From Gammaproteobacteria bacterium (lineage in GTDB: Bacteria > Pseudomonadota > Gammaproteobacteria > GCA-001735895), in contig JALSKD010000177.1 in the NCBI GenBank assembly GCA_026989015.1, positions 401 through 64,400 of the forward strand: a DNA stretch of 64,000 nt. The letters are read 5' to 3'. A program made the translations under genes and the position numbers. The first letter of the stretch is position 1; each line of letters starts with the position of its first letter. This document shows positions 617 to 13,094 of this stretch, in pieces. The notes below the pieces were generated by a model that was not told the DNA's origin, searched no databases, and was given only the letters and a program-made list of their open reading frames with translations.

Positions 617-703
617 GCCGGGGTGGCGGAACTGGTAGACGCAGCGGATTCAAAATCCGCCGGTGGCGACACCTTGGGGGTTCGAGTCCCCCCCCCGGTA
701 CCA
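617..703 (+). tRNA. tRNA-Leu (anticodon CAA)
   Basis: GCCGGGG acceptor stem pairing with CCCCGGT, with A as discriminator and CCA at the 3' end. Anticodon stem GCGGA/TCCGC encloses loop TTCAAAA. Long Leu-type variable arm. T-arm GGGGG-TTCGAGT-CCCCC. Length 87 nt. Confidence 0.9.
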
Positions 704-774: not shown

Positions 775-1402
775 CATGAACAGACTCGCTTCTCTCCTTT
801 GCGCCTTCACCCTCGTCCTCGTCAGCGTCCACGCCGCCGCACAGGCCCCGGGCTACCGTTACCAGCCCTATGCCCAGTACCCCAACTACCAGCAACAATC
901 ACCGGTGGAGCTGCTTCAGATGGCCATCAATGTGCTGCAGGATTACATCAAGACCGGCAAGTTCAACAATCCGGACGAGGTGGTGGCCTTCCTCGACGCC
1001 AATTTCTCGCAGTTTTTCGATTTCGAGCAAATGGCACGCTGGGCCGCCGGCTATCACTATGCGCGCATGAACTCGGCGCAGCGCTATATCTTCCAGACCA
1101 ACCTCAAGCGCCTGTTCTTCGCCGCCTTCGCGCGCATCATCAGCGCCTACGGCGACAAGCAGCCCCGGGTCGAATTCCTGCCGCCACGGCGCATCAGCTA
1201 CAACGAGGTGCTGGTCACCGCGCGCATCACCCCGTCCACCGGCGGTTACCCGGTCCGCGTCGATTTCCGCTTCGCCCAGGGTCCGCTGGGCTGGAAGATC
1301 TATGATGTCGGCACCAACGGCAGCTCCGCGGTGGCCTATTACCGCGCCTACTTCAACAATCTGATCCGTACCCGGGGCTACGGCGCGCTGCTGCAGCAGT
1401 AA
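775..1402 (+). CDS. MlaC/Ttg2D-family periplasmic (phospho)lipid-binding protein with signal peptide
   Basis: MNRLASLLCAFTLVLVSVHAAAQA signal peptide. The C-terminal half (…YIFQTNLKRLFFAAFARIISAYGD…VRVDFRFAQGPLGWKIYDVGTNGSSAVAYYRAYFNNLIRTRGYGALLQ) aligns by eye to E. coli MlaC (…REAYFAAFREYL…[48 protein letters not shown]). The track ORF 587..1402 begins upstream inside the tRNA; the true start is the ATG at 775. Confidence 0.7.
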
Positions 1403-1420: not shown

Positions 1421-2359
1421 ATGGACACTCATCGTCTGCTCGTCAAGCTGAGCACCCGGATCCTGCTGCAATTCCTGCTGGCGCTGGTGCTGGTGGCCGT
1501 TGCCATCGGCATGAACCTGGATTTCCTGCGCGGCTTCTACTTCGAAAACCAGCAGACCCCGACCGGCGTCATCCTCAACAGCGTGATCGTCGGTATCCTG
1601 CTGATCGGCCTGCTCAACCTGCTGTGGCTGCTGCTGCGCTACCGTCGCGAGGAGGCAGCCATTGCCGGCTTCGTCGAAAACATCGAGGCGATCCGCCCCG
1701 ATCCGACCGAGGGGCTGGACCCGCACAGCCTGATCGCCAAGCGTTATGCGACGATGAAATCCATCAGCGCGGTGCACGGCGAGATCAACCACAACGCGCT
1801 GGCAGCGATGCTCACCGCCGACGAGGGCACGCGCCTCGGCCTGGTGCGCTTTATCAACAACATCCTGATTCTCACCGGTGTGTTCGGCACCATCGTCTCG
1901 CTATCGATCGCCCTGCTCGGCGCTTCCGACCTGATTGAATCCGCCGGCACCGGACTCGACGGCATGGGACTGGTGATCCACGGCATGTCCACCGCCCTGT
2001 CCACCACCATCACCGCCATCGTCAGCTATGCGCTGTTCGGCTATTTCTTCCTGCGCCTCAAGGATGTGCAGACTCACCTGATCAGCGGCATCGAACACCT
2101 GACCTCGGTCTACCTGATTCCGCGTTTCGTCAAGCGCAGCGAAGACCTGCTGACCCAGGTCAGTGGCCTGATCAAGGGTGTCATCCGCGCCACCGAGAAG
2201 ATGAACGAAACCCAGGAGACCTACCGCTCCTCCGCCAGCACGCTGCTGCAGATCCTGTCCGGGCACAAGCAGCAGATGGACCGGCTGGCCGGCGACATCG
2301 GCGAGATCAAAGCCATACTGCGCGACGGCTTCCGCCTGCCCGAGCCGCCCGCCGAGTAA
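1421..2359 (+). CDS. MotA/TolQ/ExbB-family proton channel (stator A-subunit-like), 4 TM
   Basis: TM1-TM2 pair at the N-terminus, a cytoplasmic loop of about 80 aa, then a TM3-TM4 pair containing the family motifs ILTGVFGTIVSLSIAL and GMSTALSTTITAIVSYALFGYFF. A cytoplasmic tail of about 100 aa follows. AAGGA ribosome-binding site 8 nt upstream. Only 18 nt separate it from the MlaC-like gene. Confidence 0.7.
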   Translation: MDTHRLLVKLSTRILLQFLLALVLVAVAIGMNLDFLRGFYFENQQTPTGVILNSVIVGILLIGLLNLLWLLLRYRREEAAIAGFVENIEAIRPDPTEGLDPHSLIAKRYATMKSISAVHGEINHNALAAMLTADEGTRLGLVRFINNILILTGVFGTIVSLSIALLGASDLIESAGTGLDGMGLVIHGMSTALSTTITAIVSYALFGYFFLRLKDVQTHLISGIEHLTSVYLIPRFVKRSEDLLTQVSGLIKGVIRATEKMNETQETYRSSASTLLQILSGHKQQMDRLAGDIGEIKAILRDGFRLPEPPAE

Positions 2360-2365
2360 CGCGCG

Positions 2366-3364
2366 ATGAGCGCCTTTCCCAGCCTCGGCCCGCACAGCCT
2401 CGACTCGGACAATGAGGGCGGTTCCTTCTGGCCTTCCTTCACCGACATCATGATGGTGGTGGTGATGATCTTCCTGTTCGCCACCAGCCTGCTGATCGTG
2501 CGCAACTGGAACCTGGTCGCCGAGCTGCAGGCCAGTCTTGAGGCCGAGCGCCTGGCCGAGCAGATGATCCAGAGCACAACCGAGGAAAACGCCACACTGG
2601 AAGAGCGTCTGACCAATGCCGAGCAGCTCAATTCCATTCTCCGGCTGCGCCTGCTGGAAAAGGAAGAGCAACTGAAGCGGGACCAGCAGGAAATCGCCGC
2701 ACGGCAGCTTCGGATTCAGCAACTGGAGGAAGCGCAACAACAGCTGCAGGCGCAGAAGGCGTCCCTCGATCAGCGCATCCGCAGCATCGAACAGGAACTC
2801 GACAGCACACGCAGCGAACTGGTGAGCAGCAAGGACGAGACCCGCAGCCTTGCCGAGCGTCTGGCGCTTCAGGAGCAGCGCCTCGAGCAACAGCAGTTGC
2901 AGGTGAAAACCGCCCGCGAGCAGCTCGAACAGGCCCGGCAGCGCATCGCCAGCCTGAGCGCCCGCAACCAGGAACAACAACAGAAGATCGGTCTGCTGGA
3001 GCAGGAGAAGATCGACTACAACCGCCAGTTGCTGACCCTCAAGGGCGAGTACGAGGTGGTCAAATCCAAGTACGAGGAGCTGATCAAGCCGGCGCGCACC
3101 GCCAAGGGCAAGTATGTGGCCGAGGTCTACTATGTAAAGGGCAAGAAGGGCAAGGTCATCCGTTTCAAGGAACCGGGCGACGCCACCTTCCGCAACCTCA
3201 GCCTGGAACAGGTGGAAGCCCGCCTGGCCGAACTGAAGCAGGAAAAGGGCAAGGACCTGTATGTCAAGATCATCATCCCCAAGGACAGCGGCCTGACCTA
3301 CAACGAAGCCTGGAATTTCATGAAGAACCTGCTCGAGAAATACGACTACTACTATCAGCAGTGA
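2366..3364 (+). CDS. MotB/TolR/ExbD-like membrane anchor with long periplasmic coiled-coil and novel C-terminal domain (no OmpA domain)
   Basis: N-terminus GGSFWPSFTDIMMVVVMIFLFATSLLIV matches the MotB plug/TM (W..[FY][AT]D[LM]M) and retains the catalytic Asp at position 27. Residues about 53-245 are Gln/Glu/Leu/Arg-rich heptad coiled-coil. The C-terminal region of about 95 aa (KGKYVAEVYYVKGKKGKVIRFKEPGD…YDYYYQQ) is unlike OmpA_C. The start is 6 nt after the motA-like stop. Confidence 0.6.
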   Translation: MSAFPSLGPHSLDSDNEGGSFWPSFTDIMMVVVMIFLFATSLLIVRNWNLVAELQASLEAERLAEQMIQSTTEENATLEERLTNAEQLNSILRLRLLEKEEQLKRDQQEIAARQLRIQQLEEAQQQLQAQKASLDQRIRSIEQELDSTRSELVSSKDETRSLAERLALQEQRLEQQQLQVKTAREQLEQARQRIASLSARNQEQQQKIGLLEQEKIDYNRQLLTLKGEYEVVKSKYEELIKPARTAKGKYVAEVYYVKGKKGKVIRFKEPGDATFRNLSLEQVEARLAELKQEKGKDLYVKIIIPKDSGLTYNEAWNFMKNLLEKYDYYYQQ

Positions 3365-3849
3365 ATCCGTCCATGGAAAAGATACTGGTCAGCGCCTGCC
3401 TGCTCGGCGCTCCACTGCGTTACGACGGTGCGGACAACCGCTGCGATCACCCCCTGCTCGACCGCTGGTCGCGGCAAGGCCGCCTGATCGACATCTGCCC
3501 GGAAACCGCTGGCGGGCTGCCCACGCCACGCCCGCCCGCCGAGCGGAGGGGCGGTCGCGTCGTGACCGCCCGCGGAGACGACCTCACCGAAGCCTTCTCC
3601 CGCGGCGCTGCCGCCGCCGTGGACCTGTGCCGGACCCACGACATTCGCCTTGCCCTGCTGGCCGCACGCAGCCCCTCCTGCGGCAACCGCATGATCTACG
3701 ACGGCCGGTTCAGCGGCCGCCTGATCCCCGGCGCCGGTGTGACCGCCGAACGGCTGCAGGCCATCGGAGTGCGGGTTTTCGAGCCTGCGCAGATCGATGA
3801 ACTGGCCGCCACACTGAACCGCCTCGAAACGGAGAACGCCCATGCGTAA
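3361..3849 (+). CDS. DUF523 (TudS-like, 2-thiouracil desulfidase family) protein
   Basis: The VSACLLGAPLRYDG and SPSCG cysteine motifs are typical of DUF523 (a recollection, not a search). The track start is GTG at 3361; an ATG lies in frame at 3373. It overlaps the preceding stop, consistent with translational coupling. Confidence 0.7.
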   Translation: MNPSMEKILVSACLLGAPLRYDGADNRCDHPLLDRWSRQGRLIDICPETAGGLPTPRPPAERRGGRVVTARGDDLTEAFSRGAAAAVDLCRTHDIRLALLAARSPSCGNRMIYDGRFSGRLIPGAGVTAERLQAIGVRVFEPAQIDELAATLNRLETENAHA

Positions 3850-4453
3850 TGCCTGGCCTGCCCTGCTCGCCCTGCTGTTCGTCGCCCTCTCGATCTGGTC
3901 GGCCATCGAACCCGCCTCGCGGGAAGTCTGGATCGCGGAAGTGATTCCGGTGTTCGCCGCCTTTCTGCTGCTGCTCCTTACCTATCCAAAGTTCCGTTTC
4001 AGCAACACCGCCTACACGCTGATGACCGGCTGGCTGATCCTGCACACCATCGGCGCCCATTACACCTTCGCCAATGTGCCCTTCGACTGGTTCAACCGGC
4101 TGATCGGCTCCGAACGCAACCAGTTCGATCGGGTAGCCCACTACATCATCGGCTTCTATGCCTACCCGATGGCCGAGTTCCTCTACCGCAAGGGCTACAG
4201 CGGCAAATACCTCGCCAGCCTGTTCGGGCTGTTCTTCATCATGAGCGTGGCCGCCGGCTACGAAATCATCGAATGGATCTATGCCGACCTCGAAGGCGGC
4301 GAGGCGGGCATCGAATTCCTCGGCTCCCAGGGCGACATCTGGGACGCCCAAAAGGACATGCTGGCCGACACCCTGGGTGCGGTCACCAGCCTGCTGTTGT
4401 TCCTGTGGATGTACCGGGGGCGTCCGGTACGGCTGTCTACCGGTGAAGCCTGA
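3842..4453 (+). CDS. DUF2238/YjdF-like inner-membrane protein
   Basis: Multi-TM protein …TGWLILHTIGAHYTFANVPFDWFNRLIGSERNQFDRVAHY…; the family assignment is from memory. ATG at 3842 overlaps the DUF523 stop by 8 nt. Confidence 0.55.
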   Translation: MRNAWPALLALLFVALSIWSAIEPASREVWIAEVIPVFAAFLLLLLTYPKFRFSNTAYTLMTGWLILHTIGAHYTFANVPFDWFNRLIGSERNQFDRVAHYIIGFYAYPMAEFLYRKGYSGKYLASLFGLFFIMSVAAGYEIIEWIYADLEGGEAGIEFLGSQGDIWDAQKDMLADTLGAVTSLLLFLWMYRGRPVRLSTGEA

Positions 4454-4949
4454 ACCCCGCGAGCGCCCGCTGATCCGCCCGATGGGCACAGAGGACTTCG
4501 CCACCTTCTGGCCCGTGTTTCGCGCCATCGTGCAGGCGCGCGACAGCTACGCCATCGACCCGGACATCGGTTTCGAGGCGGCCCGCAGCCACTGGCTGGA
4601 ACACCCCCTCGAAACCCGTGCCGCCTTCATCGGCGACCGGCTGGCCGGAAGCTATTACCTGAAAGCGAATTTCGACGGTCCCGCCGATCACATCGGCAAC
4701 TGCGGCTTCATGGTCGATCCGCGGTTTCGCGGGCGCGGTATCGCCCATGCAATGGCCGAGGAGGCGCTGGTCCGGGCCCGCCAAGCCGGTTTCTCGGCCC
4801 TGCAATTCAACCTGGTGCTCGCCAGCAACGCTCCGGCGCTGCACCTGTGGCGCAGCCTCGGTTTTGCCGAAATCGGCCGCATTCCGGATGCCTACCGCCA
4901 CCGTGATCTGGATCAGGTGGATGCCCTCGTCATGTACCGGCGGCTGTGA
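4443..4949 (+). CDS. GNAT family N-acetyltransferase
   Basis: …CGFMVDPRFRGRGIAHAMAEEALVRARQAGFSALQFNLVLASNAPALHLWRSLGFAEIGRI… is a GNAT core fold. A GTG start at 4443 would overlap the upstream stop; the first ATG is at 4482. Confidence 0.75.
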   Translation: MKPEPRERPLIRPMGTEDFATFWPVFRAIVQARDSYAIDPDIGFEAARSHWLEHPLETRAAFIGDRLAGSYYLKANFDGPADHIGNCGFMVDPRFRGRGIAHAMAEEALVRARQAGFSALQFNLVLASNAPALHLWRSLGFAEIGRIPDAYRHRDLDQVDALVMYRRL

Positions 4950-4986
4950 GAAGATCATCCTGATCCGAACCCCGGAGATCCCAACG

Positions 4987-5439
4987 ATGGAACTGGCGCT
5001 GATTCACCCGATGCTGGTGCATTTCCCGCTGGCGCTGATGCCGCTTGTGGTTTTGCTGCAGGTCTGGGGATTGATCCGAGGCGAGGCCCTGTTCGGCCGG
5101 AACTGCCTGGCGCGCAGCCTGCTGTGGCTGACGGCCGTGGCCGGACTGTCGGCAATCGCCGCTGCCCTGTTCGGCGACACGGCGCTGGACATCGCCGTCG
5201 AACGCGGTTTCCCTCCCGACACGCTCGAAGACCACCAGTCCCTGGGCCAGACCAGCGCGCTGCTGATGGCCGCACTGGCCGTCATCCATGCCCTGCTCTA
5301 CCTGCGGCAGACGGATTCGCGGGGCGGCCCTGGCCTGAGCCTGCTCATCATCAGCAGCGCGGTCCTCATCATCCTGCTGACGACGGCTTTCTATGGCGGC
5401 AACTTGGTTTATGTGCTCGGGGTCAATGTCGCCGGCTGA
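4987..5439 (+). CDS. DUF2231-like small membrane protein
   Basis: MELALIHPMLVHFPLALMPLVVLLQVWGLI…; the MLVHFPLAL signature and 4 TM segments are typical of DUF2231 (from memory). ATG at 4987. Confidence 0.55.
   Translation: MELALIHPMLVHFPLALMPLVVLLQVWGLIRGEALFGRNCLARSLLWLTAVAGLSAIAAALFGDTALDIAVERGFPPDTLEDHQSLGQTSALLMAALAVIHALLYLRQTDSRGGPGLSLLIISSAVLIILLTTAFYGGNLVYVLGVNVAG

Positions 5440-10906: not shown

Positions 10907-13094
<2,188 letters not shown>

Follow-up and report, generated by a model that had tools for sequence, protein, structure and literature searches.

The question raised by this locus is what a channel protein resembling the flagellar stator subunit MotA does at a site that is not flanked by flagellar genes. 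The locus lies near the start of a 64,000-nucleotide stretch of gammaproteobacterial DNA (GTDB lineage GCA-001735895; assembly GCA_026989015.1, positions 401 to 64,400 of the 145.8-kb metagenome contig JALSKD010000177.1), which is referred to as the window and numbered from its first letter. A preliminary description made from the sequence had interpreted an open reading frame (ORF) of 312 amino acids (aa) as a MotA-like proton channel with two plus two transmembrane (TM) segments, a central loop of about 80 aa and a cytoplasmic tail of about 100 aa, and had assigned it to a distinct branch of the stator family. The adjoining gene (2366 to 3364), which bears most of the unusual features of the locus, was not mentioned there. 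The two genes are termed A and B in the following. The reading preferred here, to which a probability of roughly 0.6 is given, is that their products form a self-contained, ion-driven A5B2 motor, the B dimer of which serves as its own periplasm-spanning stalk.

The gene for A was taken from the ORF list with an ATG start, and the two segments quoted in the preliminary description were located in its product (ILTGVFGTIVSLSIAL at residues 150 to 165, GMSTALSTTITAIVSYALFGYFF at residues 188 to 210). The averaged hydropathy of 47 family members shows four hydrophobic segments, in agreement with the two plus two count; their mean Kyte-Doolittle values are 2.40, 2.13, 1.89 and 1.26 from the first to the fourth. 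The gene is divided as follows.

1421 to 2359, plus strand: gene for the A subunit, a channel protein of the MotA/ExbB/TolQ/ZorA superfamily, 312 aa
1460 to 1636, plus strand: extra N-terminal hairpin of A giving the predicted 2+2 topology, composed of TM1 (residues 14 to 31), a conserved outer loop of 18 aa (FYxENQQTxTG) and TM2 (residues 50 to 72)
1637 to 1852, plus strand: cytoplasmic loop of A (residues 73 to 144), small, with one free helix (residues 104 to 117) according to DSSP on the AlphaFold2 (AF2) model
1853 to 2053, plus strand: channel core of A with TM3 (residues 145 to 168, GVFGT157) and TM4 (residues 184 to 211, STALSTT196), from alignments, codons checked
2054 to 2356, plus strand: cytoplasmic helical tail of A (residues 212 to 312), heptad-periodic, with the terminal motif GFRLP

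Between the segments lie loops of 18, 72 and 14 aa. The central loop of the preliminary description is therefore present but shorter than stated, whereas the length given for the tail agrees well with the 101 aa found. The AF2 model of A (predicted local distance difference test, pLDDT, 73) is all-helical, with helices at residues 3–31, 33–42, 47–89, 104–117, 124–174, 180–237, 240–260 and 265–303. The mean number of lysines and arginines in the 47 members is 2.2 in the N-terminus (11 aa), 1.0 in the first loop (18 aa), 9.45 in the second (72 aa), 0.21 in the third (14 aa) and 11.6 in the tail (approximately 105 aa). This distribution fits the positive-inside pattern of a four-helix protein with both termini in the cytoplasm and supports, as a topology predicted from charges, the arrangement of MotA and PomA.

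ExbB and TolQ have three transmembrane helices with the N-terminus outside, whereas A shows four segments and a positively charged N-terminus. An alternative to the preferred reading is a Ton- or Tol-type motor with a TonB- or TolA-like partner encoded at a remote site, in which TM1 of A would be a signal peptide that is cleaved off, like that of ExbB from Serratia. The N-terminus of A does carry a positive n-region and a hydrophobic stretch, and candidate cleavage sites were found in 36 of the 47 members by a simple −3/−1 rule, which is too permissive to decide. These candidates, however, are situated inside the hydrophobic core. The hydrophobic stretch (18 to 19 aa) is long for a signal peptide and ends in most members with W, F or Y followed by Q, N or K, resembling the belt of a membrane interface, and a conserved AXA site is absent. 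Furthermore, the N-terminal motif MDTxRLLxxLS is invariant in relatives of at least 60% identity. Judged by its length, its end residues and this motif, TM1 is probably retained as a helix, and a cleavable signal peptide is not supported.

The tail shows a strong 3.5-residue hydrophobic periodicity (residues 212 to 303, z = 8.6), and the motif GFRLP at its end is conserved. In some relatives the last tail helix is duplicated in tandem (43 aa), and the tail reaches a maximum of 149 aa. Such a duplication is compatible with an extended bundle of tails, which it would lengthen, rather than with a hairpin, which it would disrupt.

The family of A, the protein of which carries the database name 'hypothetical', is large and unannotated. 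Matches to A at E ≤ 1e-3 number at least 2,996 clusters (90% identity), and the family profile matches 523 cluster representatives at 50% identity. A scan of one genome per species gave 181 carriers, 80 of which were fetched as loci L001 to L080; all locus counts given here are based on these. Full-length identity to the window protein ranges from 92% down to 43% in the 80 loci. The gene is real and under selection, far beyond chance.

Assignment of A to the MotA/ExbB/TolQ superfamily is supported by its relatives and by its predicted fold. Of 47 diverse relatives, 38 matched the Pfam family PF01618 (MotA_ExbB) at E ≤ 0.01, the best at 3.5e-7, and up to 15 matched the PADLOC models for ZorA (best 2.8e-7), the latter over the shared motor core only. 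Since the relatives match PF01618 and the window protein misses it, membership follows by transitivity and not from the window sequence alone. In a Foldseek search of the PDB with the AF2 model, ranks 1 to 44 were occupied exclusively by ExbB, TolQ or PomA, and MotA appeared at rank 50. The top match was Serratia ExbB (7ajq), followed by ExbB and TolQ of E. coli (further ExbB/TolQ matches: 5sv0, 6tyi, 9ddo, 9kpz and 8vlw); most probabilities were between 0.96 and 1.00, with approximately 210 to 230 columns aligned.

The channel motifs point in the same direction. In both hhalign and MAFFT alignments, T157 (GVFGT157) and T196 (STALSTT196) of A are aligned with T148 (GLFGT148) and T181 (AEALLAT181) of ExbB, and GLFGT of TolQ is likewise aligned with GVFGT157. 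Within the family, G153 and G156 are invariant and both threonines are conserved in more than 90% of the members. MotA has AFGIVAA at the first threonine site. P173 and P222 are important conserved prolines of MotA; in the MAFFT alignment with E. coli MotA no proline was found in A at these positions, and TM3 and TM4 are free of proline. With the threonine motifs aligned to ExbB and TolQ and the two prolines lacking an equivalent, the pore of A is ExbB/TolQ-like in sequence. The likeness to MotA asserted in the preliminary description holds for the topology and does not extend to the channel motifs and the fold ranking, which are ExbB/TolQ-like, or to the helix of the partner protein, which is ZorB-like (see below). 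With this restriction, and with either H+ or Na+ as the possible coupling ion, its interpretation is supported, including the distinct branch of the stator family, as none of the curated models covers the A protein of the window.

The features of the partner gene are the following.

2366 to 3364, plus strand: gene for the B subunit, 332 aa, 6 nucleotides downstream of A
2423 to 2500, plus strand: predicted trans-pore helix of B, SFWPSFTD27IMMVVVMIFLF, with the invariant Asp27 (codon 2444 to 2446, checked)
2501 to 3085, plus strand: predicted coiled-coil stalk of B (residues 46 to 240), 195 aa with no proline and two glycines, in one unbroken heptad register
3086 to 3361, plus strand: conserved C-terminal domain of B (PAR..LYVKIIIPxDSGLTYNEAW..YDYYYQ), predicted strand-strand-strand-helix-strand-helix

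The pairing of A and B is obligate: with tblastn, B was found in the same contig stretch at each of the 80 loci, and in 79 it follows A directly, its start often overlapping the stop of A. At least 1,840 relatives of B were found, one of which is named 'ExbD' by one source.

The only split pair among the loci is located on a Sedimenticolaceae chromosome (L072 7943 to 11202, OZ245019.1, complete genome), where two unrelated genes on the opposite strand lie between otherwise intact A and B. The first encodes a protein of 342 aa, the N-terminus of which is signal-like. The product of the second (530 aa) may be an arylsulfatase, judged by reading its sequence.

The N-terminal helix identifies the product of the adjoining gene, as judged by sequence, as a B subunit with a helix most like that of ZorB. 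Six columns are invariant (F21, W22, P23, F25, T26 and D27; FWPxFTD), and Asp27 is aligned with D32 of MotB, D25 of ExbD and D23 of TolR. A profile of the first 75 residues matched the PDB chains 8vvn_B (E 6.3e-6), 8vvi_A (9.9e-5) and 8qyd_F (6.4e-3); chains of ExbD were reached only at 0.07 to 0.29, and no chain of MotB or TolR was matched in this search. The third of these chains, deposited as 'Membrane protein', is presumably ZorB of E. coli. The first two are ZorB of a Shewanella type I and of a Sulfuricurvum type II Zorya system (8VVN and 8VVI, respectively; PMC11890865). The PADLOC model ZorB1 was matched by 21 of 21 B members tested (best 1.4e-9) and by B of the window with E 8e-4 in full length and 2e-6 with the N-terminus, in each case over the shared motor core only. 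These matches are partly an effect of the library, since PADLOC contains no models for MotB or ExbD. Of the 21 N-terminal regions, only 3 matched the Pfam family MotB_plug and only 3 matched ExbD, in all cases with E > 0.04 (MotB_plug 0.044 or worse), and full-length B of the window had no Pfam match to OmpA or MotB_plug.

The resemblance to ZorB raises the possibility of a degenerate or novel Zorya-like sensor for phage defence, with the tail of A signalling to effectors encoded elsewhere. Besides the ZorB chains, to which the B helix is closest among characterised proteins, and the uniform PADLOC matches, the ZorA matches among the relatives of A and the heptad-periodic C-terminal tail, as in ZorA, would fit. 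In ZorA, three transmembrane helices are followed by a tail from Gly223 to Thr729 (PMC11946911), and this tail is required for defence (PMC11946911, PMC11890865), as is the OmpA-type peptidoglycan-binding domain of ZorB (PMC11890865). In A, by contrast, four hydrophobic segments precede a tail of about 100 aa, compared to at least 500 in type I; the tail is indeed short relative to ZorA, as was noted in the preliminary description. B lacks an OmpA-like domain. ZorC, ZorD, ZorE, ZorF and ZorG are absent from the flanks in the window and from the recurrent neighbours in the 80 loci, and in no clade is the pair adjoined by ZorC, ZorD, ZorE or another gene for a nuclease or helicase. The genes are chromosomal and non-mobile, with housekeeping synteny kept within clades; searches of the viral contigs of IMG/VR and the plasmids of PLSDB yielded no relatives. 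A role in phage defence is therefore regarded as improbable.

The most striking part of B is the stretch behind the helix. It is rich in L, Q, E and R, keeps the same heptad register in 23 of 24 sliding windows (3.5-residue periodicity, z = 5.1) and matches models of SMC coiled-coil arms. Fully helical, its 195 residues would measure approximately 29 nm, which is of the order of the periplasm width. The linker between the end of the helix and the PAR motif, determined in 68 loci, has 16 distinct lengths between 161 and 305 residues, and each of these leaves a remainder of 0 or 4 on division by 7. Growth of the linker by tandem repeats of 14 residues is seen in one clade (e.g. L031, EIASLTQDRQRQDE). 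Evidently, insertions and deletions are tolerated only as whole heptads or as the classical stutter of four residues. Such a restriction of lengths speaks for a stiff, uninterrupted coiled coil whose two ends, helix and tip, have to keep their relative phase.

The last approximately 90 residues form the best-conserved part of B. For this domain (AF2 model, pLDDT 68), no match was found in Pfam, in PDB sequences or with Foldseek. OmpA was matched by 0 of 36 C-terminal domains and the Pfam family ExbD (PF02472) by only 1 of 36 (E 0.18). The best hhalign matches to ExbD and TolR are non-significant and fall on the equivalent strand-helix element. The order of the elements is presumably that of the periplasmic domain of ExbD and TolR.

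These results also bear on the Ton/Tol-type alternative. Common to A and both ExbB and TolQ are the fold matches headed by Serratia ExbB, the GxFGT motif, the TM4 threonine (AL..T) and a small cytoplasmic domain. As in ExbBD and TolQR, the B gene is located directly downstream and carries the aspartate in a single helix. To these could be added the non-significant hhalign matches at the C-terminus of B and the 'ExbD' name of one relative. The differences are nevertheless considerable. A has an extra N-terminal segment (four instead of three) and a coiled-coil tail of 100 aa. B contains 195 aa of coiled coil, compared to a total of about 140 aa in ExbD and TolR, and its C-terminal domain has no significant sequence or Foldseek match to theirs. 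No TonB or TolA gene was encountered among the recurrent neighbours in the 80 loci, and the coiled coil of B already supplies the spanning element which TonB and TolA provide. Together with the rarity of ExbD matches in both parts of B and the evidence on TM1, this makes a motor with a remote TonB- or TolA-like partner unlikely.

The pair could also be a divergent stator for flagella or gliding (MotAB/PomAB- or AglRQS-like) serving a motility apparatus encoded elsewhere. The predicted four-helix 2+2 arrangement with cytoplasmic termini, the A-B operon with the aspartate in B and the presence of PomA and MotA among the fold matches are shared with MotAB and PomAB. The unbroken TM3 helix of the AF2 model (residues 124 to 174) is shared as well; it is listed among the traits of flagellar stators, which further possess a torque-generating interface of at least four helices (PMC12505986). 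In A, on the other hand, the 72-aa loop contains one free helix only and is thus 'condensed' in the terms of that study, as is typical of non-flagellar homologues. The pair has no torque-generating domain and no equivalents of P173 and P222, and B has no plug or OmpA-like domain. E. coli MotA gave the weakest of the three hhalign results with the A family, behind ExbB and TolQ. As stated in the preliminary description, flagellar genes do not flank A (none within 8 kb), and flagellar or gliding genes are missing from the recurrent neighbours in the 80 loci. Homologues of MotA, MotB, TolQ, TolR, ExbB or ExbD were not found in the 64-kb window, and canonical stator or Ton/Tol genes were likewise missing from the loci. 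A motility stator is therefore very unlikely.

For the preferred reading, an A5B2 motor with its own stalk, the following working mode is proposed. Five A subunits would form a ring in the inner membrane, the pore of which is lined by TM3 and TM4 presenting Thr157 and Thr196, and the TM1-TM2 hairpin would be located at the periphery of the ring, as in MotA. The N-terminal helices of two B subunits would be inserted into the ring, with Asp27 as the putative ion-binding site. Ion flow (H+ or Na+) might turn the ring relative to the B dimer. The dimer would be prolonged by about 195 residues (about 29 nm) of rigid, parallel coiled coil, topped by the small alpha/beta domain near the peptidoglycan or the outer membrane. 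On the cytoplasmic side, the five tails of 100 aa might, by analogy to ZorA (PMC11946911), form a short helical bundle, a ZorA tail in miniature, and the ring with this bundle would either turn or be held in the cytoplasm. None of the known accessory domains (OmpA, plug or ExbD domain) was found in the pair, TonB, TolA, Zorya effector and rotor genes are missing beside it, and B has a long rigid stalk of its own with a conserved tip; for these reasons we propose that B is both axle and force transducer, exerting torque or tension straight onto a target near the peptidoglycan or the outer membrane. We infer the 5:2 stoichiometry, the coupling ion, the rotation, the bundling of the tails, the position of the stalk in the periplasm and its span, the target and the function in the envelope.

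Two other systems offer parallels to such a B subunit. TPH-vWA proteins, which are paired with TolQ-like genes, have been proposed as direct transducers on the basis of computation only (Mol Biol Evol 2025, PMC12204202). In these, too, the B-type subunit with the aspartate helix carries its own transducer, and no TolR/ExbD or TonB/TolA is needed. The periplasmic part of B, however, consists of a coiled coil and an alpha/beta domain of about 90 aa instead of a vWA domain, and A differs by its four segments and its tail. GldLM and PorLM, the motor of type IX secretion and gliding, can be compared by analogy only, as 5:2 motors with a dimeric B-type subunit that forms a long periplasm-spanning shaft (PMC9389320). 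A sequence or fold match to them was not obtained; GldL has two TM helices, GldM is built of globular domains instead of a coiled coil, and phylum and genomic context differ.

Several observations weigh against the motor. A of the window reaches 12.2 bits with PF01618, below the cut-off of 22.9 (E 0.15), and E 0.023 with the PADLOC model ZorA2; it has no NCBIfam match and remains below every curated threshold of Pfam, NCBIfam and PADLOC. Scans of A and B of the window with these libraries gave only sub-threshold or coiled-coil matches. The Foldseek E-values for A are weak (6.5e-3 or worse), with TM-scores of 0.3 to 0.6 (up to 0.59 when normalised to the target). Profile searches of PDB sequences with two alignments of the A family returned only coiled coils, as noise from the tail, and hhalign of the family against single sequences of E. 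coli MotA, ExbB and TolQ found the correct regions with probabilities of only 1 to 15%. The orientation of B cannot be read from the flanking charges, B of the window having no lysine or arginine before the helix. As its C-terminal domain has no detectable relative, a target at the peptidoglycan or outer membrane is a guess. A conserved third gene was not found by all-against-all clustering of the ORFs in the 80 loci, the neighbours being clade-specific housekeeping genes. Finally, the lengths of the A tail and the B stalk appear to co-vary across the membrane, which the motor model leaves unexplained.

On part of these grounds, namely the sub-threshold scores of the window proteins and the coiled coils returned by the PDB-sequence searches, the pair might be no motor at all but a helical membrane protein and a coiled-coil protein which resemble stators by chance or composition. 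Against this stands the agreement of independent lines of evidence: the transitive Pfam matches, a fold list made up almost entirely of A subunits of 5:2 motors, the alignment of two functional threonines, and an obligately adjoining partner with an invariant aspartate and a helix significantly similar to ZorB of solved structure. A chance resemblance is hence considered extremely unlikely.

The co-variation concerns at least three independent lengthenings of the A tail, each by a different insertion and each accompanied by a B stalk longer than that of the nearest relatives.

L012, L027, L031 and L050 (43-aa duplication): A tail 149 aa, B linker 263 to 305 aa, linker of the nearest relatives 203 to 210 aa
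L046 and L053: A tail 131 aa, B linker 238 aa, linker of the nearest relatives 196 aa
L035: A tail 132 aa, B linker 217 aa, linker of the nearest relatives 196 aa

A counter-example is L058, which combines a B stalk of 294 with a normal A tail of 104. The co-variation may reflect a real geometric coupling, or these lineages may be prone to neutral slippage.

The carriers of A are almost all uncultured marine Gammaproteobacteria. They include Sedimenticola, Thiodiazotropha, symbionts of Solemya and Olavius, and metagenome-assembled genomes (MAGs) of Chromatiaceae, Thiohalomonadaceae and Cellvibrionaceae. A neighbour-joining tree of the A core shows deep clades, one of which consists largely of Sedimenticola-type MAGs. 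Such clades and the synteny within them fit a housekeeping module passed on by vertical descent better than a defence island. The pair gives the impression of an envelope machine with a housekeeping role, inherited vertically in marine Gammaproteobacteria that are for the most part sulfur oxidisers. In the window it is flanked by housekeeping genes, for MltF-like, TadA-like, FKBP/rhodanese, MlaC-like, TudS-like, DUF2238, GNAT and PutA proteins. One of these is the following.

776 to 1402, plus strand: gene for an MlaC-family periplasmic lipid-binding protein (PF05494, E 1.6e-25), a clade-specific neighbour, 18 nucleotides upstream of A

An MlaC-family gene adjoins A in 11 close loci belonging to the clade of the window and, at a distance of 1.7 to 3.7 kb, accompanies the pair in three distant loci (L055 9574 to 10350, L079 11380 to 12159 and L077 approximately 11649 to 12137). 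In a second clade the neighbours are a gene for cyclopropane-fatty-acid (CFA) synthase, transcribed divergently, together with genes for cystathionine beta-synthase and gamma-lyase and for an enolase-superfamily protein, and in a third DUF4147/MOFRL, DUF455 and an LpxH-like phosphoesterase. With MlaC-like, CFA synthase and LpxH-like genes as neighbours, a connection to lipids or the envelope is weakly suggested. From their position beside the pair in three clades, a more far-reaching version of the motor can be drawn: a new trans-envelope rotary machine serving the lipid homeostasis of the outer envelope, in which the B coil would be a drive shaft with a length matched to the bundle of A tails. 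With length changes by whole heptads only, the terminal domains would keep their angular phase. This extended version is unlikely.

In the literature searched, no description of the A-B family was found. An A protein with four segments and a tail, combined with a B protein with a heptad-quantised stalk and an orphan tip domain, is undescribed there, although many uncharacterised non-flagellar stator homologues have already been recognised (PMC12505986). The 5:2 ion motors are a small set of machines which carry the energy of the inner membrane to flagella, the outer membrane, gliding, secretion and phage defence, and each new architecture has shown another use of the same rotary core. The two-gene family joins a MotA-type topology, an ExbB/TolQ-type pore, a ZorB-type helix and a short ZorA-like tail with a B subunit that would have its own stalk. 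The whole-heptad rule of the stalk is direct sequence evidence of selection for a rigid, phase-preserving shaft and is relevant to a question still under study, namely whether rotation or tension alone is passed on by B subunits. Should a phenotype exist, the pair would be a minimal system for force transduction across the periplasm.

A scan for promoters and terminators around the pair gave nothing informative, and an Rfam scan of the window found two tRNAs only. One of these, tRNA-Leu(CAA) at 617 to 703 (plus strand), is located just upstream of the MlaC-like gene, the product of which is an orphan, HpnM-like protein. An ORF of 271 aa (587 to 1402) runs through this tRNA; the real start of the MlaC-like gene is at 776 according to the gene call of the source contig. 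Downstream of B, genes for a 2-thiouracil desulfurase-family protein, DUF2238, a GNAT acetyltransferase and DUF2231 follow with tiny gaps (3373 to 5439, plus strand). They probably do not belong to the A-B system, since this arrangement is common only to the closest relative (L047). Four contigs (L017, L023, L038 and L054) are labelled as Urechidicola, Acidimicrobiia, Polaribacter or Haliangium MAGs. Their A and B are 57 to 58% identical to those of the window, which suggests contamination during binning rather than horizontal transfer.

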